A stretch of DNA of 64,000 bases from a virus. Its lineage: Duplodnaviria; Caudoviricetes. A program made the translations under genes and the position numbers. The notes beneath the pieces were generated by a model. The model had not been told where the DNA came from. It saw nothing but the letters and a program-made list of their open reading frames with translations, and ran no database searches. Within the stretch, counting starts at the first letter, position 1, and each line of letters opens with the position of its first letter. Positions 31,827 to 52,252 of the stretch are shown here, piece by piece. The stretch is from the IMG/VR virus record IMGVR_UViG_3300027007_000012, positions 1-64,000 of that record, one strand, 5' to 3'.

Positions 31827-32027
31827 GCTATCTTTTTCGTGCTATCCCAGTCCGACCGCGTGGGTTACCAAAAAACTGCTATCCCAGCCGCTTTCGCGCG
31901 CGGCCCGCCGGCTCACGGACTCACTCGCCGCTCGCTATCAAATCTGTGCTATCCTGCGCCGGGACCGTCGTGCGCTATCAAAAAATCGCTATCCCAGAGC
32001 TGCGTGGGTTATCTTTTTCGCGCTATC
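31827..32027 (+). repeat. Iteron-like array: five pairs of G(C/T)TA(T/C)C hexamers 14 bp apart
   Basis: Pairs start 31827/31841, 31864/31878, 31934/31948, 31974/31988, 32008/32022; A- or T-tract spacers. Confidence 0.85.
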
Positions 32028-32159
32028 CTATGCCTGGTTCGATCTCCAGTCGAAACCGGGGGCCTCGTCGCTGCAACCCGGTGTGAAACCTGTCGTGAAC
32101 TCGTGAAGCGATAACCATGCTACGGGAACGGTTTTACCAGCAGTTTTATCAGTATAACA

Positions 32160-32215
32160 TATATTTATTATCTTACGTGTCCTACATAGATTATGGCACA
32201 AAAAGGCCACCCGAC
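32160..32215 (+). promoter_or_regulatory. Early promoter-hairpin module 1
   Basis: TTTATTA, ATG 32193, hairpin TGGC-ACAAAAAG-GCCA, CCCGAC. Confidence 0.7.
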
Positions 32216-32564
32216 GGGACGCAGCTGGGACGAGCGGGTCCAGGAGCGACTGGAGAACCTCGAGTACGTCGAGCACGTGCACCTGGATTCGGGCGAGCGC
32301 GACTACCTGGCGGGCCAGAGAGATGTCGACCGAGTGACGTGGCTGGTCAGGCTGGATGAGGCGACGATTCAGCAGATCGAGTTCGTCGAGGCGGGAGACA
32401 TCGATGGGAGCGAGACGTTGCGCGGGATTCGCAACGAGTTCGAGCTCGAGATGGGCCTCGCCCCCGGCGACTCGTGGATGGAGTGGGAGGAGATGCAGCG
32501 GGGGACGATCTACGTGACCGGCACGCACGACAACCGTCCGGGAGGGAGCGACGTCTTCCGCTGA
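32193..32564 (+). CDS. Early hypothetical protein
   Basis: 123-aa acidic ORF, leaderless start. Confidence 0.7.
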   Translation: MAQKGHPTGRSWDERVQERLENLEYVEHVHLDSGERDYLAGQRDVDRVTWLVRLDEATIQQIEFVEAGDIDGSETLRGIRNEFELEMGLAPGDSWMEWEEMQRGTIYVTGTHDNRPGGSDVFR

Positions 32565-32580
32565 GCGGCCGGTCGCGGCA

Positions 32581-32624
32581 ACCCGGCATGGTGCGTCGTG
32601 GGGGTTCGAGTCCCCCACCGGGCA
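32581..32624 (+). ncRNA. Miniature tRNA-like element A
   Basis: CCCG/CGGG stem, GCA-TGG-TGC mini arm, GTGGGGG-TTCGAGT-CCCCCAC T-arm; no anticodon arm. Confidence 0.6.
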
Positions 32625-32669
32625 TGGGCCGAGAAAAGTCGGGACTGGCCCACCCGAACGGAGCAACCG

Positions 32670-32975
32670 ATGAGTGTAGACGACGCGCCCGCTGAGGAGC
32701 GGGCACTGATAGAGGAGCACCGCAACGAGATCGCCCGAACCGCCGTCGACGACGCGGTCGAACTGTACGACCTGGTCTCGCGTGTCGGGTTCATCGCCGA
32801 GGACGCCGCCGCCGAGCTCGAGTTCGTCGACGAGGACGAGGGGTCGCTGGCGGATGTCCGTCTGGCCCTGGACATGCTGGACGAGATGGACAACGCACTC
32901 GTGTACATGAACCGACAGAAGCGCCGCGTCGAGGGCCTGTTGGAGGAGCTGGCGCACATCGAGGAGGACCTGTAG
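32670..32975 (+). CDS. Coiled-coil hypothetical protein
   Basis: GGAG RBS, ATG 32670, acidic heptad pattern. Confidence 0.65.
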   Translation: MSVDDAPAEERALIEEHRNEIARTAVDDAVELYDLVSRVGFIAEDAAAELEFVDEDEGSLADVRLALDMLDEMDNALVYMNRQKRRVEGLLEELAHIEEDL

Positions 32976-33148
32976 ATGCCGTCGACATCGATCGAGGTGG
33001 CGGGTGACGTCGTCAAGGCCCGGTACTTCGGCGAGGCGGAGGGTGACTACGCGAAGCTGGTCGTCCACCGCGACCTGTTGGCGAACGAGGATGAGGCAAC
33101 GCGCGTCCTCGACGAGATGCGCGACACGATCGCCCGGGAGGGCCGCTG

Positions 33149-33346
33149 ATGCACGACACGTGCCAGTGCGAGGAGTGCAAGCTGGAGCGCCAGCGCGAGT
33201 ACGAGGCGTCGTACCCCGAGCAGGCGCGCCGGGACAAGCTGGAGTTGGGTGCCGAGGCGACGACCGAGTTCGCCCGAGAGGAGGCACTGCTGCTGAAGAC
33301 TGGGATGACCGAGCGCGATGCGCGGGCCCGGGGGCTGATCGACTGA
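33149..33346 (+). CDS. Small Cys-containing protein
   Basis: CQCEEC; part of a chain of coupled small ORFs from 32976 to 33513. Confidence 0.55.
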   Translation: MHDTCQCEECKLERQREYEASYPEQARRDKLELGAEATTEFAREEALLLKTGMTERDARARGLID

Positions 33347-33509
33347 TGACCGCGATGGATGACCTGCGCGTCGAGCGTCAGCACTCGCGCTACGCGATCG
33401 CGCTGGAGAACGTCGAGGCACTCGCGCACGACGGCCTCGAACAGACCAGCGCGAAGGAGAAAGACGAGATCCTGCGCGAGATCGAGGCGGTCGCGACGGG
33501 GGCGTTCGA

Positions 33510-33938
33510 ATGAGCGAAGTGTCGAAGAAACGCGCAGCTGCGATGTTGGAGTTGCTCGATAAGGACGAGACGATGAGCGAGGGACACGACGACTCGACCG
33601 ACCCGGAGTGTTGGCGGGAGTCGTTCCTGGAGAGCGCGTTCGAGGAGGCGGTGTCGATGGTGACCCAGGCGTCGATGGCCTACGACGAGGAGCACGGAGA
33701 GATGAACGACCAGCCGCACCCGATGGACGTCATCCGTGGGGAGAGCCTGTTGCGCGTCTACGCGACGAGTCGACCGTGGGCGGTCCCGGTCGTGGTGGTC
33801 GAGGTCGCAGAGGCGCCGGCGTACTTCGAGAACGGCATGCTGACCGATGTGCGGGAAGTGTACGCCCGGCGGAAGCCGGGGCTGTCGGCCGACCCGACGC
33901 ACGTGAAGATCCAGATTCGCCAGGGGCGGTCCCGATGA
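33510..33938 (+). CDS. Hypothetical protein
   Basis: 142-aa acidic coupled ORF. Confidence 0.6.
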   Translation: MSEVSKKRAAAMLELLDKDETMSEGHDDSTDPECWRESFLESAFEEAVSMVTQASMAYDEEHGEMNDQPHPMDVIRGESLLRVYATSRPWAVPVVVVEVAEAPAYFENGMLTDVREVYARRKPGLSADPTHVKIQIRQGRSR

Positions 33939-34240
33939 GCGGCGCGACGCGACAACCCTGTGACGTCCGGGATTCGGTGGCCGAGATGTCGACGGAGTCG
34001 CTGCTGTTCCAGACGGCGATGACCGACGCCTACGGGGGTGAGGTTGCCGACCTGATCGACTGGGAGCTGGACAGAGAGATGCGACACGAGCTCGCCTCAC
34101 GCGGGGTCGAATGGTAGTGTACGCGATGGTGACCCTGATCGTCTGGTTGGGTGGCCTGCTCGCGTGCTGGATGGTGTACAGAGCGGCGGTTGGAACGATA
34201 GACCACAGACAGTCATGAACAGAGACATGGAGGACGACAA

Positions 34241-34501
34241 ATGGTGAACTGGGGCGGGCGGTACCCGCCAGGAGCAGCGAACGACCCGGCGGCACCGTAC
34301 AACGAGCCGGAGATGCCCGAGCCCGGGACCGTGATTACGCACGACGTCTCGGAGGCGTACTGCGCGGACTGTGACGAGACGGTCGGGCCAAACAGCCCGG
34401 ACGTCGTCGCGGACATCCTGCTGGACGAGCACCACGGACACCAGGTGGAGGTCGAGTCGTGGACGGAGGAGGAAGTCTGGGGAGGCGACGATGCCCGGTA
34501 G
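34241..34501 (+). CDS. Zinc-binding hypothetical protein
   Basis: CADC ... EHHGH; GGAGG RBS. Confidence 0.6.
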   Translation: MVNWGGRYPPGAANDPAAPYNEPEMPEPGTVITHDVSEAYCADCDETVGPNSPDVVADILLDEHHGHQVEVESWTEEEVWGGDDAR

Positions 34502-34980
34502 TCACGAGCGCCACCTGGACGAGTTCGGTATCTGTCAGTGTGGCCCGTCGCGATCGGGGACGGAGCCGATGGCGCTGGAGTACCAGGATGACATGACCGG
34601 GCGGTGGGTGACCGAGCAGGTGCCGGCCTGCGCCGACTGCTTCGGGCTCTTGTAGCCCGGACGCCCTTTCCGCTTCTGCGCGCCGCCCGCGACGACCCTG
34701 GTTTCCGGTCCAGGCCGAAATAGTAGAGATTCTGATTATATGCAGAACCCGAGAGATGAATACAACTCGCCTCAGCGGCACACACGAGGGTCTCCCGGCG
34801 ACCAGTTTTCTGGGGTCTCACCCCCCACCCTCTCCATGTCGCAAACGACCGTCCACGGGCCGCGTTCGCGGCGTCTACGCACGATTTTCGAAGTTCTCAT
34901 TTTATGCCTTTTGCTCATCGGCGAACCCTGGTTTCTGCTCCGCGAGCCCCGGCACCGCATCCCGGCGCATGTAAGATAAT

Positions 34981-35050
34981 AGAAACATTTAATATCGTAC
35001 CAGACCAAGTATACATTGGACATCGAGAAACCGATGGCCAGCTGGAGTGT
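34981..35050 (+). promoter_or_regulatory. Early promoter-hairpin module 2
   Basis: ATAATAGAAACATTTAATATCGTACC; hairpin TGGACATCG-AGAAAC-CGATGGCCA; CTGGAGTG. Confidence 0.75.
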
Positions 35051-35057
35051 CAAAGAA

Positions 35058-35516
35058 ATGGCGAAAACGACCAACGCGGCCGGCGCACAGCAGACGAGCA
35101 TCGCGAGCGACGCGGACCTCGTCGACCCCACGCAGCACGTGGTGGGGTTTAACGACAAGACGATGAAGCGCGCGAAGTGGGAGGAGTACGACTTCGTGGT
35201 CACGGACACCGGGAACGTGCAGGTCCGGAACGCTTCGTATGGGGACGACGCAGACGCGCACACGTACCACGTGGTGACCGACGCGTCTGGCATCCCGAAG
35301 TGGTGCCTGCACGCACTCGAGGACGACCACGAGGACGACTGGGCGCCATGCCCGGCGATGGCCTACCACGCAGCGAGGAAGAACAAGGAGACGGGCCTCG
35401 ACACCGAGGAGCTGATCGCCAACGGCGAGTACCGTGTCTGCAAGCACGCCCTCGCGTACGCCCGGAACGAAGCGATCGTCCAGGCCGTCCGCCGGGTCAA
35501 GGGAGGCGACAACTGA
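35058..35516 (+). CDS. SWIM zinc-finger protein
   Basis: YHV ... WC ... CPAMAYH ... CKHALA. Confidence 0.7.
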   Translation: MAKTTNAAGAQQTSIASDADLVDPTQHVVGFNDKTMKRAKWEEYDFVVTDTGNVQVRNASYGDDADAHTYHVVTDASGIPKWCLHALEDDHEDDWAPCPAMAYHAARKNKETGLDTEELIANGEYRVCKHALAYARNEAIVQAVRRVKGGDN

Positions 35517-35764
35517 TGAGCACCGTCGAGGTGCTGAACGACCACGGGACGGTCCAGTACCGCGAGCACGACCTCCAGGTCCGGCGCGTCGACGCGGCGT
35601 CGGCGGGCTACGACACCGGGTTCGAGAACGAGTTCGAGCTCCTGGTCGACGACGAGGTCGTCGCGACCGCGACCGAGATCGAGGCCGAGGGGTGGAAGAA
35701 TCCGTGGGCCAAGTCACTGCGCCTGTATGGGAAGGCGTTCGTCGACGGGAGGCTGGACGGATGA
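35516..35764 (+). CDS. Hypothetical protein
   Basis: Coupled acidic ORF. Confidence 0.6.
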   Translation: MSTVEVLNDHGTVQYREHDLQVRRVDAASAGYDTGFENEFELLVDDEVVATATEIEAEGWKNPWAKSLRLYGKAFVDGRLDG

Positions 35765-36093
35765 GCCGTTTCATCCAGGCCATGCGTGCAGAGTTCGGGC
35801 ACGAGGATGCCCGGAGCAACGAGGACTACCGAGCGCCCGTCCGCAAGGTGTACTACGAGGTCGACGGGACGCGACTCCGCGCCACGGTCGTCGGGGCCAC
35901 CGACGAGGAGGCGCGACAGACGTTCGACGAGCTCGCGACCGCTGAGGGACTCGACACCGCGGAGGTCACCGAGATCGTCCCGACCGACGCCCAGATCGCG
36001 GACCTGGACGACCGACTGTACAGTCACGTGCACCGCAAGGCGTCGCGCCGGGACCACGGTGCGCTGAACGCCGCGTTCAACGGGGGCGAGTGA
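35761..36093 (+). CDS. Hypothetical protein
   Basis: Coupled acidic ORF. Confidence 0.6.
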   Translation: MSRFIQAMRAEFGHEDARSNEDYRAPVRKVYYEVDGTRLRATVVGATDEEARQTFDELATAEGLDTAEVTEIVPTDAQIADLDDRLYSHVHRKASRRDHGALNAAFNGGE

Positions 36094-36476
36094 TGCGGGC
36101 GCGATCGCGGCGCTGGATGGTCGTCACGGACCCGGACACGGACTGCGAGTCGCCGGTGTTTCGCCGCATCCCGTCGAAGTTGGAGGCGCACAAGCTCGCA
36201 CAGTTGACGGTGCGCGCCTACGACGATGGGACCAGCGCCGGCGTTGTGGAGGACCTCGGAAAATGACGGGGGACGTTCGCCGACGAGAGCACGTCTACGG
36301 GAGGGGGCGGCTCGTCGTCTACGAGGGGAACCCGAACACGTCGACAGCGTTCGTGGCCGGGAAGCCGGTCCCGAACGAACCCTGACAGTTTCTGTTTTTG
36401 CGCGCCGCCCGCGTCGTCGATTCACCCAGACCGCACTGGATGCCACCAGCAGCGGCTCTCGCCCCACATATGACAG

Positions 36477-36556
36477 ATAATAGAAACATTTAATATCGTA
36501 CCTGTCATAGTATAGTATAGGTTACTGAGGGAAACCTCGGTGCCCACCTGGAGTGA
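36477..36556 (+). promoter_or_regulatory. Early promoter-hairpin module 3
   Basis: Same 26-nt promoter as module 2; hairpin ACTGAGG-GAAA-CCTCGGT; CTGGAGTG. Confidence 0.75.
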
Positions 36557-36560
36557 AAGA

Positions 36561-38225
36561 ATGACGACCAGCGACAGCAGTGGCAAGACGGAGTACAGCA
36601 CGGGACAGATCGGCGTCGACGAGGAGCGTATCATCGACGAACTGATCTTCAGCCAGGCGGAGGGCATCGTCGACGGCATCCGCGAACTCGCCCAGAACGG
36701 GATCGATGCACCGAACTCGACGACAGTCGAGATCGATGTCGACCACGAGCAGACGATCGTGATCGACGACGGCCAGGGGATGGACCTCAGCGACGAGGAG
36801 ATTCGAGAGTTCCTGACGAACCTGGGACAGTCGACGAAGATAGACGACGAGGACACGATCGGCCAGTTCGGCATCGGCTTCGGCCAGGCACTCGCCGTGG
36901 GCAAAGTGACTGTCCACAGCCAGGACTCGAAGGTCGAGTTCGACGCCAAGAACTGGTTCCGCGACTACCGCCTGTACGAGGCCGAGGAGACGTTCGATGG
37001 GACGAAAGTCACGATCGAGCACTACGAGGACGAGGTGCCGGCCGAGGGGTCGAGTGAGTGGTCGGACCACCTCGCGGACCTGCGCACCCGGTTCCAGTAC
37101 ATGGAGCTCGTGAAAGGCGTCGAGGTCTGGCTGAACGGCGAGCGCGTCTCGAACTACGACCCGGCGGATGACCTGGAGAACGCCACGGTCTACGACTCGG
37201 AGCTGGCGTACATGGTCCTGAAGCACGAGAGTTACGACTGGCTCGAAGTGTACTCGGCGGGGCTGAAGGTCACGGACGTCAAGGGACACGGCCTTCGCGG
37301 GTACGTGATCACCAAGCGCAACCTGGAACTGAACACCGCCCGGAACAGTATTCGCTCCGGGTGCGAGGTGTGGCCGGAGGTCGAGAAGGAGATCGCCGAT
37401 GCACGTGCCGAGATCCTCGCGGACGTCTCGGATTCGAACCTGTCGAACCCAGGCCGGGCCGCGATCATCCGCCTCGTGCGTGAGGGCCACGACGAGTTCA
37501 AGGACCGAGAGGTGCTGAAGATGGCCAACGGCGAGATGACGACGTTCGAACAGGTCGAGAAGCGGGATAGCATCATGTTCGCCGGCCAGACGGACAAGGC
37601 GGCGGGGAAGCTGGCCGACCTGGGCAAGATGGTTCTGATGCAGGGCGACAGCGCCGTCTCGCAACTCCGTGAGGGGGCGAAGCGGGGACAGCTGACGCTC
37701 CCGGAGACGAAGAACATCCAGGCGACGGCGGCCGCGCTCGGCATCAAGAACGGCTACGAGATCCTCGAGTTGGACGAGTTCCCGAGCAAGCCCCTGGCAC
37801 TCGCCCGCATCCTGCGGATCAAGATGGCGGCGTACAGCCCGTACGACCTGGACCGGGAGATCATCCCGGGAGAGGACAAGACGGCGCGGGCGTGGACGAA
37901 GCCCCGCCCGGACACGCTGAACGGCGACGAGCGCGCGGCCATCGCCGACTCAGAGTTCGACTCGTTCGTCGCGATCACCGAGACCGCCTACACGTCGTGG
38001 GCGAGTGAGATACTCGTCCTGGAGCTCTGGCGCATCATCGCGCACGAGTTCGCCCACACGGAAGACTCGACGGGAGAGCCGTCCCACGGGTCTGGCTTCG
38101 CTCGCCGCTTCCGCAAGATCCTGGACGCGACCCAGCCAGCGGCCGTGGAACTGCTCGAGGAGATTCGGTCTGACGGCCTCGGGGCAACGTTCGAGCGATA
38201 CGACCACGGGGTCCCGGACGTCTAA
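36561..38225 (+). CDS. GHKL (HSP90/MORC/rIIA-like) ATPase with a C-terminal HExxH zincin-like domain
   Basis: ELAQNGIDA, DDGQGMD, IGQFGIGF, GTKV; C-terminal IAHEFAH ... HGSGF. Confidence 0.8.
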   Translation: MTTSDSSGKTEYSTGQIGVDEERIIDELIFSQAEGIVDGIRELAQNGIDAPNSTTVEIDVDHEQTIVIDDGQGMDLSDEEIREFLTNLGQSTKIDDEDTIGQFGIGFGQALAVGKVTVHSQDSKVEFDAKNWFRDYRLYEAEETFDGTKVTIEHYEDEVPAEGSSEWSDHLADLRTRFQYMELVKGVEVWLNGERVSNYDPADDLENATVYDSELAYMVLKHESYDWLEVYSAGLKVTDVKGHGLRGYVITKRNLELNTARNSIRSGCEVWPEVEKEIADARAEILADVSDSNLSNPGRAAIIRLVREGHDEFKDREVLKMANGEMTTFEQVEKRDSIMFAGQTDKAAGKLADLGKMVLMQGDSAVSQLREGAKRGQLTLPETKNIQATAAALGIKNGYEILELDEFPSKPLALARILRIKMAAYSPYDLDREIIPGEDKTARAWTKPRPDTLNGDERAAIADSEFDSFVAITETAYTSWASEILVLELWRIIAHEFAHTEDSTGEPSHGSGFARRFRKILDATQPAAVELLEEIRSDGLGATFERYDHGVPDV

Positions 38226-38250
38226 GCGGCCGGTCGCGGCAACCCGGAAC

Positions 38251-38297
38251 GGCGTCGGTTTTGGCGTGATGCTGCGGATCGAATCCGCTCGACGTCC
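38251..38297 (+). ncRNA. Miniature tRNA-like element B
   Basis: GGCGTCG/CGACGTC stem, TGG-containing linker, GCGG-ATCGAAT-CCGC T-arm. Confidence 0.5.
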
Positions 38298-38570
38298 TGG
38301 CGGCCTCCGCTACTGTCAAGTGGAGTGACCGCCTACTCCCGCCTGGATGGGTCGGTTCCGTCTGTGGTAGGCGGCTCGGCCCGTCCCACTCCAGGTGGCC
38401 ACGGCGTTCGCGATCGGGCTGGCTCCCTCGGGAGTTAAGTGGTCGCGGCCGCGGGCACCGAGCCCGTGTCACCTTTCGTACTGCTTCCCTGATACCCCGT
38501 ATGTACGTACGTACGCGCCCATACGTACAGACGCGCATTCTCACCTTCCTTACCTGTCAGAGTTCAGTAA

Positions 38571-38635
38571 CACTTATTATCGTACCCTGAGTAGGTCTAT
38601 ATGGACTTCGAGAAACCCGAAGGCCAGCTGGAGTG
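38571..38635 (+). promoter_or_regulatory. Early promoter-operator-hairpin module 4
   Basis: TTATTAT, GTACCCTGAGTAG, hairpin TGGACTTCG-AGAAACC-CGAAGGCCA, CTGGAGTG. Confidence 0.75.
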
Positions 38636-38638
38636 AAC

Positions 38639-38950
38639 ATGACAGATACAGCACGCCTTGTTGTCAACGGTTATGTAGAGCCACAAGAACGATCGGTCCG
38701 GATCGTGTCGATCCTGGGGAGTCTGGCGAACGTGCCGGACGGCCACCGCTTCGAGTACCGCGGGATGGAGCTCGAAAAGCGCGTCACCACTGCACGAGCG
38801 CGGCGCGAACCCGAGCTCGCCGTGTACGACCCCGATGGCGAGTTCGTCGACCAGTTCCAGCCTCTGGAGCTCTCGTCGTACGGGATCGTGGAGATGCTCG
38901 ATACCATGCGCGCCCACTGGGTCGAGACGAAGCGAGCGACCTCTCTGTGA
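38639..38950 (+). CDS. Hypothetical protein
   Basis: ATG after the GGAGTG RBS. Confidence 0.6.
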   Translation: MTDTARLVVNGYVEPQERSVRIVSILGSLANVPDGHRFEYRGMELEKRVTTARARREPELAVYDPDGEFVDQFQPLELSSYGIVEMLDTMRAHWVETKRATSL

Positions 38951-39082
38951 TCGAGGTCGTGATCGCGGTCGCGGTCATGGTCGCTGGCCTGGCATTGTTC
39001 TACGCCATGGTCGCGTACTTCGACTTGTGACCGAAAACTGGTATTTACCGGGTGGGCCCTACCGTGACATGGAGTACCAGAG

Positions 39083-39400
39083 ATGCCCCGATTGATCGAG
39101 CGCATGGGTTGCGTTGCCGACCGACTGAGTGACGAGTGGGAACTCGACGACATCGTAATCGAGCAGTCGGCGACAGCCACGGCGCTCTATCGCCACGAGT
39201 CCGGGGCGATCGTCATGTGGTCGGCCGACCCGGGGCATCGCGTTCAGCTGTGGGAGCCAGACGGCGCGATGGAGACCTGGTTGGACGACGACGTGGTCGA
39301 CCTGGATTGCGCGGCCGAGACGGTCCAGACGTGCATCGAGATGGTCGAATACGAGACCAGCACATCGATGCCACCAGCAACGTCGGCGCCACGTCCGTAA
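39083..39400 (+). CDS. Hypothetical protein
   Basis: After a GAAAACTGGTATTTA promoter; C-terminus carries the motif copy at 39368. Confidence 0.55.
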   Translation: MPRLIERMGCVADRLSDEWELDDIVIEQSATATALYRHESGAIVMWSADPGHRVQLWEPDGAMETWLDDDVVDLDCAAETVQTCIEMVEYETSTSMPPATSAPRP

Positions 39401-39499
39401 CCGTTTTTCCGCGCCGCCCGCGCCGGTCCTGTCACATCGATTGACCACCTGTACCATGCTACGTTTCTCGATTACCAGCAAACCCCTCAGATATACATA

Positions 39500-39557
39500 C
39501 ATTAATATCTGTACCACGCATAGGTACATATAGGTCAAAAAACTGGCCTATCCGAAC
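39500..39557 (+). promoter_or_regulatory. Early promoter-hairpin module 5 (no ATG in stem)
   Basis: ATTAATAT, hairpin ATAGGTCA-AAAAAC-TGGCCTAT, CCGAAC; first ORF starts at 39572. Confidence 0.7.
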
Positions 39558-39904
39558 GGAGACTGAGAAAGATGAGATACAGAGTCTACGGCACACGCAG
39601 TGGCACCGATTTCCAGGCACCCGTCTACGCGCGGACCGCGTCTGACGCGATCGACCTGTTCCTCGACTCCGTGGGCGACCACGCGGCCGAGTACGACAAC
39701 GTCCGAGCCGAGGTCTGGGGTTGACGATGGAGAAGCTGTCGAATGTGGTCCGCATCGAAGACCACGAAGTGGTCGTCAACCGACTGTACCTGGCCACGCT
39801 GGTCGACGACGTCCAGTACCGACTGAGCGCCCTGGGAGACGAAGACGTCGGTGACTACGAGGGAGAGTTGCACGAGGCGCTGTTCCACGCCCAGGAGGCG
39901 CTCG

Positions 39905-40270
39905 ATGACTGACGACGACGACCGACTCCCGCCGGACGCGGTCCCGGACCCGTCGGTTTGGATGCCCCCGGACGTGGTGGTCAGCAAGGAGACCGCCGAG
40001 GTCGCGCTGCGCGAGCTCGACATCCTGATTGAGCACACGGGCGGCCCGGACACGGCGGTCGAGGACTGCTGCTCGCCGCTGGCGCTCGCGTACGACCGGG
40101 TCGAGAGACTGGAGGGCGAGGGGATCGACCCGTTCACCGTGGGGACGGTCCTGCAAGTGTTGGTCGGTGTCGGTGAGGAACGAGGCGTCGACCTGTCGGG
40201 GGAGGACCCGTTACAGGACGACGTGTTCCAGGCGAGGAGCGAGTTCAGGGACGCACTCGGCGTCGAGTAG
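39905..40270 (+). CDS. Hypothetical protein
   Basis: Acidic coupled ORF. Confidence 0.6.
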   Translation: MTDDDDRLPPDAVPDPSVWMPPDVVVSKETAEVALRELDILIEHTGGPDTAVEDCCSPLALAYDRVERLEGEGIDPFTVGTVLQVLVGVGEERGVDLSGEDPLQDDVFQARSEFRDALGVE

Positions 40271-40287
40271 TCGCCCCTCGCGGTTTT

Positions 40288-40337
40288 GCATCGCTGCTGG
40301 TGGCATTCCGAGCTCGGTTCGATTCCGAGGCGATGTG
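40288..40337 (+). ncRNA. Miniature tRNA-like element C
   Basis: GCATCGC/GCGATGT 7-bp stem, TGC-TGGTG-GCA mini arm, CTCGG-TTCGATT-CCGAG T-arm. Confidence 0.65.
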
Positions 40338-40644
40338 TGGCTCCCTGGCCGGAGACGATACGTTGATAGGCTGGTGGAGCCTATGTCTGCACGACATCCC
40401 ATAGTGGATGTCGTTCCGTTCGGGTGGGATAGCACGCGTCGGGCTGTCTCGGCAAGGGCAACCACGCAAGTCGAGATCAGAGGCTCGTGCATACCCGTTG
40501 TCCGGGGCTTTGTCCCCGGACGCCCTTTGTGACCCTGAGCGCCAGCTCTCAGTTTTCGCGTATCCTGTCAGTATCCTGCGGGGCCGGTCGCGCTAACCCG
40601 GTACCCATGCTACGGTCCACAACTATCAACAATATTAGTTGTCA

Positions 40645-40705
40645 TAAATATTATTATATCCCTACCCTGAGTAGTATAGAATATGGGAAAATCAAAATCC
40701 CACTC
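40645..40705 (+). promoter_or_regulatory. Early promoter-operator-hairpin module 6
   Basis: TTATAT, CTACCCTGAGTAG 40662-40674, ATG 40683, TGGGA-AAATCAAAA-TCCCA. Confidence 0.8.
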
Positions 40706-40823
40706 GAGCGGTGAGCGCGTGAACAAGCGGCGGTACCGCGGGAGCGAGCAGACCGAGAGCTTCGACCTGCAAGCAGAGCTCGCCAAACTCGGCGGCGACG
40801 AGGAGGACGAGGACGATGAGTGA
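40683..40823 (+). CDS. 46-aa peptide, basic N-terminal half and acidic tail
   Basis: MGKSKSHSSGERVNKRRYRG...DEEDEDDE (not in the ORF track); followed by coupled ORFs 40816-41420. Confidence 0.55.
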   Translation: MGKSKSHSSGERVNKRRYRGSEQTESFDLQAELAKLGGDEEDEDDE

Positions 40824-41416
40824 GCGAGCGTACCGAGAGCCGGCCAAGTTCTCGGCCGACGAGCTGTCAATCGGCGATGAGATCGTGGTCGCCGGCCTCG
40901 TCCACGAGGTCCTGTCCGTGGGCGAGCCCGGGAAGCAGTGCCTGGTCCGCACGGACCGAGGGGCGTTCTCGAAGGACGGTCTGAGCAGTGGCATCGACGA
41001 CGGCTCCGTGGAGGTCCTTGGGGGAGGCGACGATGGGCGCTGACTTCGGTCCTGTCAACGTGCGCTGGGAGGGGCCGAACGGGGACGTCCGCAACCGGGA
41101 GTTCGCACAGCACGGTCTGTCGACCGGGTGGATCGTCGGCTACGATGAGGACGACAATGCCGAGCGGAAGATACCGCGGAACCGGGTCTACGAAGTGGAG
41201 GTGCTCTGAGATGAGCGAGAGGGTCGACGAGATCAAGCGCCGGATCACGGGTGTGGACCTCGTCGAGATCTGGGTGAGTGAGGGCGACCGACTGTTACTC
41301 GGCATCCAGCCCTACGCCGACGCCGACGGGGAGGCTGTCGCGCACTACCTGGAGCGACTGTTCGACGCACGCATCGAGCGGGTCACGTACGACTTCGTCC
41401 TCGCCGAGGTGGCCCG

Positions 41417-42019
41417 ATGAACTTCGACGAGATGAGTCCGGCCGAGATCGACGACCTGTTCCAGGTCGAACCGCAGCACGACCCCGAGTTCCAGATGGAG
41501 CGAATGCGCGAGCAACTGGAGTACGCTGGCTGGGACGCGATCGAGGGGCTCGTCGACCCCGGGGACGAGTACGTCGTCGAGGAGTCGCACCTGCTGACGC
41601 CCGACCCGCTCGACTACACCGACTTCGAGTGGACGCTCGTCTACCGCGAGAAGCACGTCTTCGACGTCATCGACCCGTTCGACAGCACGCGAGGGGTGAT
41701 CCCCGCCAGTCGGGATGGCGAGGACATGATGCAAGCGTTCGGGGAGTTCGCCGAGGCGTTCCACCTCGAGTGCGAGATCGACAAGTTCCACGATGAGCTC
41801 GGAGAGATGGAGCCCGGGGAAGTCGTCCTGCTCCCGAGCGGCAAGCTCCGCATGGACACGAGCGACCGGATCGTCGTCTACAACCCGATGTACGAGCCGG
41901 TCGTGACGACCGACCCGGAGAACGTCACGGTCGAACTGGTCGAGAGTATCATCGACGACTGGCGGGCTGAGATGCGCGAGAAGTACGAGGGGACGCCGAT
42001 GGAAGACCAGTTCGACTGA
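41417..42019 (+). CDS. Hypothetical protein
   Basis: 200-aa strongly acidic ORF. Confidence 0.65.
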   Translation: MNFDEMSPAEIDDLFQVEPQHDPEFQMERMREQLEYAGWDAIEGLVDPGDEYVVEESHLLTPDPLDYTDFEWTLVYREKHVFDVIDPFDSTRGVIPASRDGEDMMQAFGEFAEAFHLECEIDKFHDELGEMEPGEVVLLPSGKLRMDTSDRIVVYNPMYEPVVTTDPENVTVELVESIIDDWRAEMREKYEGTPMEDQFD

Positions 42020-42087
42020 CCGCGCCCGTTTTCGCGCACCGCCCGCGGCGAATGAGTTATCGACATCGAGATAGTATCGAGTAGCAG

Positions 42088-42594
42088 ATGGGATCGCGAC
42101 CGTGGGAGAACCCCGTCACACTCGCCCGGGCCTACGCCAAGCATGGCTCGGCCGAAGGCGTCGCCGACGCGTGGGGGTGTTCCGAACGCACGATCAGGAC
42201 CTGGCTGCACGAGCACGACGAGATCCGCGTCCAGCGCCAGGGTCGCCGGCCCTCGTGGGAAGACGACGACCCGGCGAATCACGTCCTGGAGGACGACGAG
42301 GGCTACGAGATCGTCGAATCGTTCGTCCCGGTCCGCGATGAGTCAGGCGAGCTCGTCACGATCGAGCGCAAGACCGTTCGTATCCACCGTCTCGTCTGCG
42401 TGGCCGAGTGGGGCTTCGACCAGGTGGTCGACCAGGAGGTGCACCACATGGACGGGCACAAGGTGCACAACACGCGGGAGAACCTGATCCCGTTAGACCC
42501 GAAGACGCACGGGTTTATGGACCCGGCGCGGCGCTGGCGGATGCCCTGGGTCGGCGATTACGAACTGGGCGATCCTGGCCCTGCTGGCGACTGA
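42088..42594 (+). CDS. HNH endonuclease with N-terminal HTH (homing endonuclease-like)
   Basis: VRIHRLV ... VHHMDGHKVHNTRENL ... H; HTH AEGVADAWGCSERTIRTWL. Confidence 0.85.
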   Translation: MGSRPWENPVTLARAYAKHGSAEGVADAWGCSERTIRTWLHEHDEIRVQRQGRRPSWEDDDPANHVLEDDEGYEIVESFVPVRDESGELVTIERKTVRIHRLVCVAEWGFDQVVDQEVHHMDGHKVHNTRENLIPLDPKTHGFMDPARRWRMPWVGDYELGDPGPAGD

Positions 42595-42616
42595 CCCGTG
42601 GGCTTTTGCTTTCGAC

Positions 42617-42707
42617 GTATCCCCGCTCGCTTTCTGTCGGCGGGTATCCCTGCTCGTTTTCGGCGGTTGCGTATCCCTGCTCGCTTTCTGACACCGCGTA
42701 TCCCTGC
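42617..42707 (+). repeat. 27-bp tandem repeat, about 3.4 copies
   Basis: GTATCCCTGCTCGCTTTC-like units start at 42617, 42644, 42671, 42698. Confidence 0.85.
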
Positions 42708-42784
42708 GGGCCCCGGCACCGCTTCCCGGTGACCAGACCATGCGATGCTCGGAAACTCACAGCAGTCCAAGCCGCTTCGCGAGT

Positions 42785-42841
42785 CTCTAATACCCTACCC
42801 TGAGTAGCATAGAATGAGGAACAAAAATTCCTCACCCGAAC
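42785..42841 (+). promoter_or_regulatory. Early promoter-operator-hairpin module 7
   Basis: CTACCCTGAGTAG 42795-42807; hairpin TGAGGAA-CAAAAA-TTCCTCA; CCCGAAC. Confidence 0.8.
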
Positions 42842-42845
42842 GACC

Positions 42846-43085
42846 ATGAACGCAATGGAAGACGTAGAAGGACTCCGTTACACCTTCTGCAACGTGTGGC
42901 TGGAATCGAACTCTCAAATCTCGCACATAATGGTGAACAAAGGTGGTGAAGATGTGTGGGAGGAGACGCCAGAGACAATACTCGTCAACAATTCGATATT
43001 CGAAGGCGAGTGCTACTTCCGAGATGTGATGAAGGTGGTGCTCGAACCACGAGAAGACGAGATCAACGTCAAGATCAACCCCTGA
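42846..43085 (+). CDS. Hypothetical protein
   Basis: 79 aa; ATG overlaps the stop of an 11-codon leader ORF starting at 42814. Confidence 0.55.
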   Translation: MNAMEDVEGLRYTFCNVWLESNSQISHIMVNKGGEDVWEETPETILVNNSIFEGECYFRDVMKVVLEPREDEINVKINP

Positions 43086-43204
43086 CGGCAACGAGATGGG
43101 GCTCCCCATGTGAGCTCCCGTTTTTGCGCGACGCCCGCCGCCCACGACTATCCCAGACCATGCGATGATCTTCGATTCCCAGCAGTTCCAGCCGTCTTAC
43201 GCGT

Positions 43205-43259
43205 CTTTATATCACTACCCTGAGTAGTACAGAATGGGAACAAAAATCCCAACCCGAAC
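43205..43259 (+). promoter_or_regulatory. Early promoter-operator-hairpin module 8
   Basis: TTTATA, CTACCCTGAGTAG 43215-43227, TGGGA-ACAAAAA-TCCCA, CCCGAAC. Confidence 0.8.
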
Positions 43260-43451
43260 GATGAGCTACGCAACCCACGTTCAGATTCAGAAGCTGAAGC
43301 GAGCGAGAAACGAGAGTCGCTGGCCCTCGGACGAGAGAGAAGACGACGAGTAGAGCCGACGCCGACTCTTTCCATTTTCGAGCGCCGCCCGGCGTGACCC
43401 ACCGGCGTTCCCGATGTGAACGTTTCCAGACAATATCAGCCGCTAAACGTG

Positions 43452-43506
43452 TCTTTAATACCCTACCAGTGGTAGTATAAGATATGGGACAAAAAATCCC
43501 AACCCA
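43452..43506 (+). promoter_or_regulatory. Early promoter-operator-hairpin module 9
   Basis: TTTAATA, CTACCAGTGGTAG 43463-43475, ATG 43484, TGGGA-CAAAAAA-TCCCA. Confidence 0.8.
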
Positions 43507-43985
43507 GCGGAACTGAGTGTAGAGAGTGTGCGAATAGAGGGAGAGAGTGGAGAAAAGACACTACGAGTGCACAGTGTGCGTATAATAGAGGGAGAGCTCA
43601 TCGTGAGAGCCTACGAAGATTTCCCACTTCACTCTGACATCTGAGTGAGTGGGAGAGCGGTCCACCGTTTTTGCGTGCGGCCCGTCGGCCTCGAACCCTG
43701 ATTTCCGGTCCACGAGATGATTTTGCTTCCTTGCAGCACCTGAGAGGCGAATACAACCCGTCTCAGCGAGGATCTCGAGCGCCTCACGGCGACACGTTTT
43801 CTGAGCTACAACCCCCTCCCTGTGGACGGTGCAAACGACTGTAATCGACTGTCAGCAGCGAGCTCACACGTGCATATTCGAGTGCCTCAGTGTATGTAGA
43901 ATAACGTATACGACGAACCCCTGTTTCTGCTCCACGCGGGCCCGCTCGCAGCATCCCGGCACCGTCTCTCTTGCCGCTTCGCTGA

Positions 43986-44044
43986 TATTTATTACCCTAC
44001 CCTGAGTAGCTATAGATATGGGACAAAAAAATCCCAACCCGAAC
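43986..44044 (+). promoter_or_regulatory. Early promoter-operator-hairpin module 10
   Basis: TTTATTA, CTACCCTGAGTAG 43997-44009, ATG 44018, CCCGAAC. Confidence 0.8.
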
Positions 44045-44395
44045 GACGAGAGCGACGAAATCCTCCCGGCCCTCGACCACCGAGGACTGACGGGACACGG
44101 CAAGAAACGACTCGACGAGAGCGAGCTCGTCACCCCGTACCTCGTGCAGACGCTCCAGGACGCTGACCCGACCATCCTCCGAGCCATCTGTCAGGTGGCC
44201 GATGCAGCAGCGTCGGCACGGTACGCACCGATCCAGAACCAGCTGGCCAAGGACGAGAGTGCCAGCCGAGAGATTCAGCAGGAATACTGGAACCAGCTGG
44301 ACGACGTGAAGGGGCTCTCGCTCCTCTGCACGGAACTCCTGCGAGACCAGAGAGACGGCGTCCCAACCGAGGAGGACCCCCGACTCGGCTTCTGA
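44018..44395 (+). CDS. Early hypothetical protein
   Basis: 125 aa, starts MGQKNPNP. Confidence 0.65.
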   Translation: MGQKNPNPNDESDEILPALDHRGLTGHGKKRLDESELVTPYLVQTLQDADPTILRAICQVADAAASARYAPIQNQLAKDESASREIQQEYWNQLDDVKGLSLLCTELLRDQRDGVPTEEDPRLGF

Positions 44396-44715
44396 ACACG
44401 GGAACCGACCCAGGGCTACCGATTTCGCGCCACGCCCGTCGTGAAAACCACCGCACCGATGCCACCAGCAGCGCCGGCCCCGGCGTGAATCGTGCACATC
44501 GCGACCAGTGTGCCTCGACGAGCGGCGACCAGGTTTCGCGAGTGGAACCCCTACCCCGTAGACGCCGCCAACGAACCTCCGAGAGCTGGGCCAGATCGCC
44601 GTCGTGAAGGGCCGTCGTATCAGGTGTGAATACTTGCGGGCCCCGGCACTGAATCCAGGGACACAGCGGCTATGCGATGCTCTGGAACTACCAGAGTTAT
44701 CAGCCGTTTTACATA

Positions 44716-44773
44716 CCTTAAATACCTCACCCTGAGTAGCTAAGAATATGGGAAAACAAAATCCCATCCGAAC
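44716..44773 (+). promoter_or_regulatory. Early promoter-operator-hairpin module 11
   Basis: TTAAATA, TCACCCTGAGTAG, ATGGGA-AAACAAAA-TCCCAT, CCGAAC. Confidence 0.8.
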
Positions 44774-45026
44774 CGGCGAGCAGTGCGGCAAACACGACGT
44801 CGTGGCCTTCGTGGCCCTCGCTGCGGACCCCTCGTGGGTCGATGCACCGACGAACCCGGTCACGCCGGGTAACGGCACCGAGGACTGGGCCGCCGACATC
44901 GAGGGCGCCGACGGGGGCGTGATCATGAGCGACTGGTCTTCGCTGGCGGGTGCGGGCGCGATCGACCCCCTGTCGGGACGAGAGCTGAGCGATGAGGAGC
45001 TGCGAGAGAGGCTGGGGGTCGAGTGA
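44748..45026 (+). CDS. Early hypothetical protein
   Basis: 92 aa, starts MGKQNPIR. Confidence 0.6.
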   Translation: MGKQNPIRTGEQCGKHDVVAFVALAADPSWVDAPTNPVTPGNGTEDWAADIEGADGGVIMSDWSSLAGAGAIDPLSGRELSDEELRERLGVE

Positions 45027-45399
45027 GATGCTGAGCCCCAACGGCGATACGGCGCGGATCGATGCGCACGAGTGCGAGCTCGAGCCGACCGGCCGCGGAG
45101 AGGGGATGCACGAGGAGTTCGAGTGCCGAGTCTGTGGGACGGTCACGACGCCCGCTGTGGGCGTCCGGCGAGCGAAGCGGCAACGGCTCTGGTGAGGGCC
45201 AGCCCCTCGTTTTCGAGTGCGTGTACGTACGTACGAGCGGGTACGCACAGACGGGTGGTGGGACCATAGCTTCCGCTTCTGCGCGCCGCCCGCGACGGCC
45301 ACCGTCCCCGACAGCCAACGTAGCATCTATGCGCGCTACTCGACAGAGAAACTTAAATTCGGGCTCCTCTGGGCTTCTACGCAAGTTTTACAACCGAAG

Positions 45400-45460
45400 T
45401 CTTTATATCTGATACCTGAGAAGTCTTAGATATGGGACAAAAAATCCCAACCCCCGAACG
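45400..45460 (+). promoter_or_regulatory. Early promoter-hairpin module 12
   Basis: TTTATA, CCTGAGAAG, ATG 45432, TGGGA-CAAAAAA-TCCCA, CCCGAAC. Confidence 0.75.
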
Positions 45461-46495
45461 GAGCGAGAGCGAGACGAGAGCAGCAGAGGAGGGACGATGA
45501 TGCGCCCCGAGTCGCCGATTGAGTGGACTGGCGAGGCCCACCTCGTCACGGTGAGCTGTAGCCGCTGCGGGAGCACGATGAGCGTCGACGAAGATACGGC
45601 GCTCTGGTACGACGAGCAGGGACGCGAGCACGTGTGCGAGGAGTGTGAGTGAGATGCGCCGAGTGCGTACGATGCTGCTGGCCGCGAGAGTCGTCGCTGG
45701 GATCGTCGTGTTCCCGATCGCGCTGACCGCCGCGAGAGCTCGGGCCCGGGTGGTCTGATGAGCTGTCTCGATTGCGGGTCGACGTCGCTGGCGAGCGAAC
45801 GAGTGGACGTGGTCGGGCGCCCCGACGAGCGGGTGACGTACTGCGAGAACTGTGGAGAGGTGCAGTACGTGGATGTGATTCGATGATTACGCTGCTGGTG
45901 GCATTGGTGGTTGCCGGGCTGGGCGTGTGGGCGTTCCTGCTGATCGCGAGGGAGCTGTAGCGATGGACTGGTGCCCGGAGTGCGGGTCGATGGCCCGCGT
46001 CGACGAACGACGGTTGGAGCGCCAGGACGACAGCGCGCTCGCCAAGGAGGTGCTCGACGTCGTCTGCATGCAGTGTGAGTACGAGGGCGAGAAGCGTCGC
46101 ACAGTGCCCGCCGTGTTCGAGCGGCGGCCAGCAGAGACGGGGCGGGGCGTGAGCGAGCGCGAGCCGGGTCACCCGCTCGACCGCTGAGCGCCCCGGTTTC
46201 GCGTTCCGCCCGCGCCGACCCCTGTTTCCGGTCCACGAGCAAATAGAGTTCGCGACGCGTGTGCATACGCTCGTCTCAGCACGATCCCCCAGGGCCTCAC
46301 GGCGACGGGCTCCTCGGGCCATCACCCCTCCCCTGTGGATGTTGCTCACGACTGACTGGGAGCACACGAACGCACGCCTCAGCGCCTCTACGCGCACTTT
46401 CTGTCTGGGGATTTATCATTGGCTTCGACCTTGATTTCCGCTCCACGCGGCCGGACGCGGCAACCCGGCACCAGAAGTATCAGCCGCTTTACATG

Positions 46496-46553
46496 ACTAT
46501 ATACCTGTACCATGAGTAGCTAAGAATATGGGAAAACAAAATCCCACCCGACC
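46496..46553 (+). promoter_or_regulatory. Early promoter-operator-hairpin module 13
   Basis: TATATA, GTACCATGAGTAG, ATG 46528, TGGGA-AAACAAAA-TCCCA, CCCGAC. Confidence 0.8.
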
Positions 46554-46767
46554 GGAACTGGCCGAGAAGCGACGCAAGCTCGTCAGCGAGCTCCCGTTCA
46601 CGAGCCCCGCCGAGAGCGGCAATCGGATCGTCGTGTGCGTGCAGGACCGCAAGCTGTCGAAGTTCGAGCGCGTCGTCGCGGACCTGGACCTGGAGATCGT
46701 CGAGCGAGAAGACGCTGGGCACTCGATGCAGGGCCGACGCCAGCGCATGGTCCTGGAGGCGTCGTAG
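46528..46767 (+). CDS. Early hypothetical protein
   Basis: 79 aa, starts MGKQNPTR. Confidence 0.6.
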   Translation: MGKQNPTRPELAEKRRKLVSELPFTSPAESGNRIVVCVQDRKLSKFERVVADLDLEIVEREDAGHSMQGRRQRMVLEAS

Positions 46768-47207
46768 CATGCGCCGATCGACGCCGGCGGACCTGGAGCA
46801 GCGCCTCGCCGCGATCGAAGCAGAGCTGCGAGCGATGAGTCGCGGAGACGTCGACGCGGGAACGTGCCGGTGGCTGCTGGAGGAGAAGGCCGAGCTCAGA
46901 GACGAGCGCGACCGGCTGCACGAGACGAGTGGGCGGTGGGCCTGATGAGCGACGAGGGATTTCTCCCGCCAGCGCCGACGGGCGGCCACCCAGCAGACGC
47001 CGTCGAGCGAGCGCGAGAGATCGTCCAGGGAGCACCGGCGACAGAAGAAGAAGTGGCGTGGGCGGCGGAGGTCCTCGCAGACGTCGAGTAGGGTCTCCGG
47101 TTTCGCGCCGCGTCCCCGCCGTCCCCGTCAGTTTTCAGGCCGATTTCAGGCCGATTTTCGCAGAAACCCTCGAAATCGAGTGCCTCAGAGCCTCTACGGG
47201 CCAAAGT

Positions 47208-47266
47208 CTTTATATTCGCTTATGTCAAAGATTTAAATGGTATGGCAAAAAACCAAACCACCCGAC
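47208..47266 (+). promoter_or_regulatory. Early promoter-hairpin module 14
   Basis: TTTATA, GGTATGG-CAAAAAA-CCAAACC, CCCGAC; ATG 47242. Confidence 0.65.
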
Positions 47267-47412
47267 GGGAAGCAGAGCAGGAGAACGAGAGCGACTGGTG
47301 GAGCGAGTATCTGCGAGAGCTCGACGAGATCGTTGTGGGAGTGCTCCCAGCCGAGTCAGATGCGGCACGCCGGCTCGCAGCAGACGAGTACCCGACGTGG
47401 AGCCAGCGATGA
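47242..47412 (+). CDS. 56-aa hypothetical protein
   Basis: MAKNQTTRREAEQ... (not in the ORF track); stop overlaps ATG 47409. Confidence 0.55.
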   Translation: MAKNQTTRREAEQENESDWWSEYLRELDEIVVGVLPAESDAARRLAADEYPTWSQR

Positions 47413-47618
47413 GTGACGAGACCGGAGAGGCGTGTGCGAGGGGAGTCGAGAGTGCGAGCAGTGAGCGAGAGCGTGTGCTGGTGAGAGACGTGACCGCCGT
47501 CGCGCAAGACCTGGAGACTATGTCGGACCACGATCACTTGAGAAGCAGCCGCATGCTCGAGAAGACGGCGCGAGAGATCGTCGACGCAGTGCACGTGTAC
47601 GCAGACGACGACGCGTAG
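47409..47618 (+). CDS. Hypothetical protein
   Basis: MSDETGEACARG..., coupled. Confidence 0.5.
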   Translation: MSDETGEACARGVESASSERERVLVRDVTAVAQDLETMSDHDHLRSSRMLEKTAREIVDAVHVYADDDA

Positions 47619-52102: not shown

Positions 52103-52171
52103 GGCCGAATACAGGTCTCCGGGAGCTGCGCCCTTCTGGGATTCGGGTCGGTTCGATTCCGACCAGGGCCA
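52103..52171 (+). ncRNA. tRNA-like element D (imperfect acceptor stem)
   Basis: Perfect GTCGG-TTCGATT-CCGAC T-arm followed by CAGGGCCA; the 5' GGCC pairs only partly. Confidence 0.45.
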
Positions 52172-52252
52172 TGTGCGCCACCCACGCTGGCGCCCAAGAA
52201 ATCGCGTGTGGAACGGAGAAGGATATGAAACAGACACAGGAGGCGCGGTGAC

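Follow-up and report, generated by a model that had tools for sequence, protein, structure and literature searches.

The DNA analyzed here, referred to below as the window, comprises the initial 64 kb of IMG/VR virus record IMGVR_UViG_3300027007_000012 (88.7 kb). Between 32.1 and 47.3 kb it carries 14 same-strand copies of a module ~100 nt long that unites a promoter, a start codon, and a hairpin. We consider it likely that this region is an accessory-gene block of an uncultured tailed virus of haloarchaea, built of 14 self-contained expression cassettes that can be re-joined at the borders of these composite modules. The repeats, their confinement to the array, the covariation of the hairpins, the open frames, and the turnover of cassettes against one relative are all seen directly. 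In the mechanism that we favor, the module would supply any cargo with a promoter, a start codon, and its first 8–10 codons. The initiator TATGG would place the ATG where the host RNA polymerase should start, producing a leaderless or nearly leaderless mRNA. The cargo would follow either as an in-frame fusion or behind a miniature leader open reading frame (ORF) whose stop abuts or overlaps the cargo start, and most cassettes would end at a T-tract/GC box, a probable terminator. Because the same module flanks every unit, cassettes could be exchanged without breaking expression: they could be added, lost, or re-joined at module borders and still be expressed.

The modules emerged from a direct-repeat search, a reading of AT-rich islands, and alignment. 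All 14 units proposed in a sequence-only reading of this DNA were recovered in place. They are given here with their ATG or hairpin anchors.

32131–32219, + strand: U1 module, with TATA box TATATTTA, ATG 32193, hairpin TGGC-acaaaaag-GCCA, and box CCCGACGGG.
34936–35050, + strand: U2 module, subclass A, with AACATTTAATATCGTACC, TTG 35016 (in frame with a 166-codon ORF), hairpin CATCG-agaaac-CGATG, and GCCAGCTGGAGTG.
36465–36560, + strand: U3 module, subclass A, anchored at 36540, with hairpin TACTGAGG-gaaa-CCTCGGTG and then CTGGAGTG; a GHKL ATPase gene lies downstream.
38550–38640, + strand: U4 module, subclass A, with ATG 38601 and hairpin CTTCG/CGAAG.
39456–39575, + strand: U5 module, a leadered variant anchored at 39530, with hairpin ATAGGTCA-aaaaac-TGGCCTAT, Shine-Dalgarno-like box CCGAACGGAG, and ATG 39572.
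40607–40715, + strand: U6 module, with the CCTGAGTAG spacer, ATG 40683, and hairpin TGGGA-aaatcaaaa-TCCCA.
42740–42848, + strand: U7 module, of a cassette found in this virus only, with ATG 42814 and hairpin TGAGGAA/TTCCTCA.
43160–43265, + strand: U8 module, with ATG 43234 and hairpin TGGGA/TCCCA.
43411–43514, + strand: U9 module, anchored at 43484, with a 10-codon ORF only.
43946–44050, + strand: U10 module, with ATG 44018 and a 125-codon ORF.
44672–44776, + strand: U11 module, of a cassette found in this virus only, anchored at 44748, with a 34-nt exact tract in common with U13.
45359–45500, + strand: U12 module, with ATG 45432 and a 22-codon leader ORF.
46455–46558, + strand: U13 module, with ATG 46528, which opens the 79-codon gene d.
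47170–47272, + strand: U14 module, the weakest copy, with ATG 47242, an interrupted hairpin GGT.GG/CC.ACC (from folding), and box CCCGACGGG.

Units 6–14 are spaced only 0.25–2.1 kb apart. The modules fall into two subclasses. In units 2–4 (subclass A) the order is AACAYTTAATATCGTACC, ~20 nt, a hairpin with an AGAAAC or GAAA loop, and GCCAGCTGGAGTG, which includes a Shine-Dalgarno-like GGAGTGA. Units 1 and 5–14 begin with upstream boxes, either CCATGCKAYG plus CAGCAGTATCAGCCG or else CCTCAGnGCCTCTACGCG, followed by a TATA box, a spacer, TATGG, a hairpin with a CAAAAAA-type loop, and CCCGAnCGGAG. The B recognition element (BRE)/TATA box is archaeal in type and is accompanied by CC at −17/−16 and WAG at −11 to −9, the latter being the usual haloarchaeal promoter-proximal element.

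These modules occur nowhere else in the genome. An nhmmer profile of units 6–13, run on the full record, matched only between 32.1 and 46.6 kb and only on the + strand, and it found 16 modules in the syntenic region of the sole relative that we retrieved, G001 (IMGVR_UViG_3300027007_000025; 89.6 kb), which is collinear with this virus at ~80% nucleotide identity. A covariance model built on the initiator, hairpin, and box gave 27 matches in 153 kb (both genomes together), every one of them a + strand match within the two arrays. Scores were mostly 30–47 bits for the class of units 6–13 in both genomes, and the weakest array copies, among them U1 and U14, scored 18–22 bits.

The spacer CCTGAGTAG had been read as a conserved operator. 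It is exact in only six units and has one mismatch in two more. The operator role did not survive comparison: the sequence is not conserved in the relative, where only the CC and the WAG are kept, and with one mismatch allowed it occurs 15 times in the whole window against 10.65 expected, which is not above chance. Uniform here, the spacer is heterogeneous in the relative, and the type-B modules of this virus resemble one another (0.76–0.83) more than their positional orthologs (0.63–0.78). Together these patterns suggest homogenization of modules within the genome, in the variable half of the array, rather than an operator.

The position of the module ATG suggests how its transcripts begin. 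In the ATG-anchored modules listed, a scan for A/T-rich 8-mers puts the end of the TATA box 23–26 nt ahead of the ATG. Starts mapped in the halovirus HF2 have the TATA box from −26 and the BRE at −33 to −37 (PMC8707807); this matching spacing therefore predicts a start at, or 1–3 nt before, the module ATG, and hence mRNAs that are leaderless or nearly so. The frame led by this ATG is open for 38–561 codons in about 24 of the 30 modules of the two genomes, with G+C at third codon positions (GC3) mostly 0.75–0.96; one third would be open if the ATG were untranslated. Thus, in these modules translation appears to begin at the module ATG itself, a feature that is new here. It is the only ATG of the 125-codon ORF of U10, and in U8 it is fused in frame to the gene that follows (MGTKIPTRT-MSYATHVQ...). 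As a result, unrelated proteins share a start of the form M-[G/A/E]-x-K-x-[P/S], as in MGQKIP, MARKSH, MEAKNF, and MESKIP.

Elsewhere, in U4, U7, U12, and G41027, the module frame closes after 11–22 codons and forms a leader ORF; in three of the four, its stop and the start that follows share an ATGA. The 11-codon leader of U4 (MDFEKPEGQLE) ends 3 nt before the main ATG at 38639, that of U7, also 11 codons, overlaps at 42846, and the 22-codon leader of U12 overlaps at 45497. Such overlap or abutment of stop and start is the arrangement used for termination–reinitiation coupling. In a third placement, hairpin and box lie in an untranslated leader 7–12 nt before the ATG. This is seen in U5 and in a promoter-less copy:

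32632–32672, + strand: hairpin plus box without a promoter (CCCACCCGAACGGAG), 7 nt before ATG 32670; kept in the relative.

In both leaders the GGAG can serve as a Shine-Dalgarno sequence. The promoter-less copy directly follows a transfer RNA (tRNA)-like T-arm element at 32565–32631, an order compatible with a module-like 5′ end being produced by RNA processing. Three further tRNA-like elements occur in the window (40290–40340, 52130–52175, and 54140–54185). All four are intergenic and conserved in the relative, with a GGTTCGA(G/T)TCC T-arm, a possible 7-bp acceptor stem, and no anticodon arm.

Translation of the module in frame into cargo in about 24 of 30 cases is also what one would expect if the shared N-terminus were a peptide tag that serves the targeting, processing, or stability of the protein, with the hairpin arising incidentally from its codons. 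We judge this very unlikely. The peptide is attached to no protein in U4, U7, U9, U12, and G41027; changes in the stem alter it freely, as the four N-termini above illustrate, while pairing is kept; and the untranslated placement of hairpin and box in U5 and at 32632 argues for a function of the nucleic acid and against a tag.

A stem of 4–8 bp with an A-rich loop begins at the U or G of the module AUG and is found at the same position in all 30 modules, formed by at least 14 different sequences, among them TGGGA/TCCCA, TGGC/GCCA, TGGGG/CCCCA, GGAAG/CTTCC, GGAAC/GTTCC, ATGGAAT/ATTCCAT, TGAGGAA/TTCCTCA, and CATCG/CGATG. A stem of at least 4 bp is expected at a given place with a chance rate of 0.44–0.49; 30 of 30 in register is far from chance. 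Compensatory changes separate orthologs, with CTTCG/CGAAG at U4 here and CCTCG/CGAGG in the relative, and TGGGA/TCCCA at U8 here and TGGGG/CCCCA there. The covariation score, counted on an alignment fitted to the model and so carrying an implied bias (MAFFT alignments of the hairpin fall out of structural register), is 0.267 against 0.096 ± 0.022 in shuffles, none of 500 of which reaches it, and at most 0.106 in slid controls. Register and covariation together argue that the structure is under selection, and the pattern fits a stem in RNA, not a DNA site recognized by its sequence. A search of 31.5–48.5 kb against Rfam gave no match.

The inverted repeat could instead act as DNA, forming a cruciform or a binding palindrome that a repressor, a recombinase, or the neighboring HNH endonuclease would recognize. 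The gene for that endonuclease sits at the edge of the variable half of the array, the sequence-conserved CCCGAnCGG just downstream of the stem could be a DNA binding site, and the stem-loops of T4-type phage cassettes were speculated by their authors to be the target of a DNA-binding protein (PMC2839356). We nonetheless find a DNA role quite unlikely. The stems covary without conservation of sequence and their loops are asymmetric and A-rich, which fits a structure in the transcript, and every copy is on the coding strand, where the transcript has its 5′ end.

As RNA, the hairpin would most likely be a 5′-terminal stem that stabilizes the mRNAs, marks them for a shared regulator, or does both, so that the hairpin-marked set would be co-regulated as a whole. 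A bolder conjecture, which we hold improbable but worth stating, is that hairpin plus CCCGAnCGGAG is a virus-specific RNA tag at the 5′ end of every mRNA of the gene set, read by a dedicated viral or host factor. The tag would arise by initiation at the module or, as the copy at 32632 might illustrate, by processing after a tRNA-like element. It would work as a switch through selective stability, selective leaderless translation, or boxB-like antitermination across the T-tract boxes. We know of no such regulon described for archaeal viruses, nor of an archaeal antitermination system of the lambda N/nut kind. The modules resemble lambda nut/boxB in form only: in both, small stems with a purine- or A-rich loop recur close to transcript 5′ ends in the early region of a temperate virus (here presumed early and probably temperate). 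Neither an N-like protein nor a boxA was identified here.

The sequence-only reading had each unit end in a shared T-tract/GC motif. This motif, CCGYTTYYGCGCGCCGCCCGCG, was found 12 times, only on the + strand and only from 31.9 to 47.1 kb, each time just past a last stop codon, and it closes 11 of the 14 cassettes:

31879–31909, + strand: T-tract/GC box 1.
34656–34707, + strand: T-tract/GC box 2.
36374–36426, + strand: T-tract/GC box 3.
39387–39437, + strand: T-tract/GC box 4.
42014–42062, + strand: T-tract/GC box 5.
43102–43156, + strand: T-tract/GC box 6.
43354–43402, + strand: T-tract/GC box 7.
43663–43701, + strand: T-tract/GC box 8.
44412–44444, + strand: T-tract/GC box 9.
45257–45308, + strand: T-tract/GC box 10.
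46182–46230, + strand: T-tract/GC box 11.
47079–47132, + strand: T-tract/GC box 12.

The box is not an inverted repeat. It lies 50–300 nt upstream of the next promoter module and probably terminates transcription. The long spacers from box to next module also hold a noncoding repeat of ~100 nt (34728–34825, 43719–43816, and about 46240–46340; 72% identity between the first two copies) and the boxes GGCCGGTCGCGGCAACCCGG and GCGGGCCCCGGCACCGC.

Comparison with the relative divides the array in two. Units 1–6 (32.1–42.6 kb) are syntenic, with 78–81% nucleotide and 46–98% amino-acid identity. To the right of 42.6 kb the two genomes have in common the cargoes of U8, U9, U10 (whose 125-codon ORF is 84% identical in amino acids), and U12, the last gene of the U12 cassette (45927–46187) with U13 and gene d, gene e, and the gene at 47409. 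The U7 and U11 cassettes have no tblastn match anywhere in the relative, at least six of its cassettes have none anywhere in this virus's genome, and the cargoes of U8 and U9 stand in opposite order. Position and orientation are kept for U1–U6, U8, U10, U12, and U13, and not for U7, U11, or six modules of the relative. Thus, units 7–14 are hyperplastic, with turnover of whole cassettes. The cassette exchange foreseen in the sequence-only reading is accordingly found in units 7–14 (two cassettes present here only, at least six in the relative only, and one swap) and not in units 1–6, which have the same content and order in both genomes, so the array does not shuffle uniformly.

The junctions are either intergenic or lie at a module's 3′ edge, and two genes illustrate the latter. 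Gene e (46769 onward) is coupled here to gene d via TAGCATG; in the relative it has its own module, its product begins MGQKIPTRRRA-TPANLEQRL, and the homology sets in 28 nt past the ATG of that module. The gene from 47409 is coupled here to the upstream ORF of the U14 cassette and is fused to a module in the relative, with homology starting 22 nt after the module ATG. Around the U11 cassette the intergenic DNA is too diverged for breakpoints to be placed, and its small boxes, though the same in both genomes, are arranged differently. A direct role of the repeats in the exchange is plausible.

The modules might, however, be no more than co-regulated promoters kept alike by a shared regulator, as in HF2, with the turnover reflecting accessory-gene flux by illegitimate recombination in which the repeats play no part. 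Taken as a whole, we see this as possible, though doubtful. Units 1–6 are positionally conserved, identity tracts between modules are short, and other variable segments of the genome have no modules, all as such a regulon would have it; moreover, the HF2 repeats are promoters at fixed positions across a genus (PMC8707807). Yet turnover is concentrated exactly where the modules are densest, two junctions lie at the 3′ edge of a module, and the modules of the variable half look homogenized within each genome.

Several points weigh against re-joinable cassettes, the reading that we prefer. The turnover is based on a single genome pair, with one relative lineage in the collections searched. At ~80% identity the breakpoints are not placeable to the nucleotide, and selection alone would also leave the surviving breakpoints between genes. 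Gene-sized replacements occur inside left-half cassettes, away from modules (e.g., 35518–36084), and the longest exact identity between any two modules is the 34 nt of U11 and U13. Single hairpins are weak (−5.7 to −10.6 kcal/mol), mostly no better than shuffles, and a hairpin across the first codons is expected to hinder, not help, leaderless initiation. Finally, promoter activity, the points where transcripts start and end, what the hairpin does, and recombination via the modules are all predicted from sequence.

The cargo is varied in amount and largely without recognizable relatives. The one to six ORFs per unit described earlier do not hold throughout, since U1 is followed by about 8 ORFs, reaching 34.5 kb, and U9 has only its 10-codon ORF. 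In U9, homology to a 53-codon gene of the relative continues in another frame; the cargo has therefore probably decayed. The following cargo and neighboring features could be identified:

36561–38225, + strand: GHKL-type ATPase (HATPase_c_3), cargo of U3.
42088–42594, + strand: HNH endonuclease with an N-terminal helix-turn-helix (HTH; phrog_7545, E = 2e-19), free-standing, without its own module.
42616–42707, + strand: 27-nt tandem repeat, 3.4 copies (CGTATCCCTGCTCGCTTTCTGACGGCG), between the HNH gene and U7.

The HNH gene and the 27-nt repeat lie at the exact point where the conserved part of the array gives way to the hyperplastic part. Beyond these there are a weak SWIM-like lead for 35034–35516 and a weak HTH-like match for the U10 protein. 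The remaining array cargo had no match in Pfam, PHROGs, or PADLOC, a protein atlas likewise yielded almost nothing on function, and the U11 protein had no relative among 5.8 billion clusters. The host-takeover and anti-defense functions once ascribed to the cargo are thus not borne out, the ATPase, the endonuclease, and the SWIM-like lead being all that was identified. An integron-like arrangement was considered and rejected. Integrons have an integrase gene and attI, and their promoter-less cassettes have an attC inverted repeat at the 3′ end; here there is no integrase domain among the array proteins searched and no attC, and the cassettes have their own promoters.

Composition also sets the region apart. 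The G+C content of 32–47.6 kb is raised (0.62–0.65), and GC3 there is mostly 0.8–0.9 against 0.68–0.8 elsewhere in the genome. The early timing named in the sequence-only reading would be suggested only by this host-like GC3, in a virus that carries tRNAs of its own for codons ending in A or U. The window, whose genes lie almost all on the + strand, holds nine tRNA genes, a family-B DNA polymerase with 33% identity to haloferacalesvirus PolB, a UvrD-like helicase, and, at 55.7 kb, a large terminase with an intein. This intein (56058–57172) has a LAGLIDADG domain; the ortholog in the relative has no intein, and its position is a clean 1.1-kb gap in the genome alignment.

The relative is classed as a provirus, lies within a 320-kb metagenome contig, and was seen again, 100% identical, in a second sample; this virus is probably temperate. 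A phage collection gave no match by nucleotide or by portal protein. Exact module patterns searched across IMG/VR returned only the relative and identical copies, with lone matches elsewhere that lacked a module. Scans of viral, metagenome, and genome collections anchored on proteins (the GHKL ATPase, the U10 protein, the HNH endonuclease, a Zn-finger protein, and the portal) retrieved only the relative or identical copies. Identical cassette proteins also occur on other contigs, the longest of 154.8 kb.

Other features flank or cross the array. A GCTATC iteron-like cluster at 31930–32050 lies just upstream of unit 1, as do AT-rich islands at 30775–30897 and 31438–31501, and these could serve in control or as an origin. 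Past the right end of the array, 48343–48672 encodes a small protein that has two CxxC pairs and is 93% identical to its ortholog in the relative; its neighbors are far less conserved, and it is a candidate regulator. The motif GATGCCACCAGCAGCG occurs genome-wide, at about 27 sites on both strands of the window (e.g., 4557, 11352, 17999, 30603, 36439, 39367, 44458, and 60366, and on the minus strand 7814, 14767, and 62981). Its + strand copies often lie 10–20 nt past stop codons, three copies are within intergenic joints of the array, and orthologous sites in the relative read (C)TACCACCAGCAGCG instead, a lineage-specific "dialect."

It is useful to contrast this array with known systems, of which the analogues named in the sequence-only reading remain the closest; its description of promoter–stem-loop cassettes that mostly carry ORFs without known relatives (ORFans) also stands. 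In HF2, 9 intergenic repeats are spread over 77 kb at positions conserved across the genus, their promoter activity was measured, and their start sites were mapped (PMC8707807); here there are 14 in 15 kb, and promoter activity is predicted from sequence. Both have repeated intergenic BRE/TATA promoters at haloarchaeal spacing with the start inside a conserved motif, flanking boxes that resemble regulator sites, and more than one sequence class per genome. No start-codon hairpin, leader fusion, or cassette turnover has been described for HF2. Its beta and gamma motifs do not exceed chance in the window, and the array modules contain neither; the alpha motif and the class II consensus were not searched.

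HGTV-1 offers a second comparison. There, a conserved motif of a TATA-like box plus an inverted repeat stands before the majority of ORFs in one arm of the genome (Sencilo et al. 2013, as summarized in PMC3950731), and the motif is likened to the promoter early stem-loops (PeSLs) of T4-type phages and proposed for regulation and shuffling (PMC3950731). Both viruses are tailed and haloarchaeal, with long runs of small ORFans, each behind a repeated promoter motif and an inverted repeat. On the minus strand of HGTV-1 (NC_021328, 34000–49700) each gene has TTTTTATAG, the inverted repeat ACTCCTCGTGgcaCGAGGAGT, TATATAAA, and CGAAAGACTTAATAC, the last being a promoter that likewise stands about 22 nt before an ATGG start. 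However, the inverted repeat there (ACTCCTCGTG..CACGAGGAGT) is upstream of the promoter and constant in sequence, whereas here it is downstream, at the start codon, and covaries. The sequences are unrelated (at most 21 bits with our covariance model), and, since HGTV-1 was a singleton, turnover was proposed there, not observed. A stem begins at the start codon in 15 of 20 of its ATGG starts against a null of 0.51 (p = 0.027), a weak hint that start-codon hairpins may be more widespread.

The PeSL cassettes of T4-type phages (Arbiol et al. 2010, PMC2839356; Comeau et al. 2014, PMC4122927) share no sequence with these modules. Their promoters are of the sigma-70 type, whereas those here are archaeal TATA/BRE promoters in a virus of a haloarchaeal host. 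Their stem-loop is a terminator before or within the promoter, whereas here the hairpin is at the mRNA 5′ end and the putative terminator is the separate T-tract/GC box. Mini-circles have been shown for PeSLs (PMC2839356; PMC4122927). The likeness is nevertheless considerable. In both systems, promoter plus stem-loop elements of ~100 nt are dense in a hyperplastic ORFan region, the ORFans that differ between close relatives (here, one genome pair) are flanked by the elements, and crossovers lie near the start codon.

Repeated halovirus promoter cassettes were thus already known, with proven promoters in HF2 and proposed shuffling joints in HGTV-1. What our work adds is comparative evidence, from a pair of archaeal viruses, that such an array gains, loses, and re-joins cassettes at module borders. 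It also describes a module that appears to carry the start codon together with a covarying 5′ hairpin, so that an RNA structure would impose an N-terminus on unrelated proteins and new cargo would be expressed by in-frame fusion or by termination–reinitiation coupling. The array may therefore offer a test bed for the translation and stabilization of leaderless, 5′-structured haloarchaeal mRNAs and for the recruitment of viral accessory genes. Overall, these comparisons suggest that it is an archaeal counterpart of the shuffling cassettes of T4-type phages.

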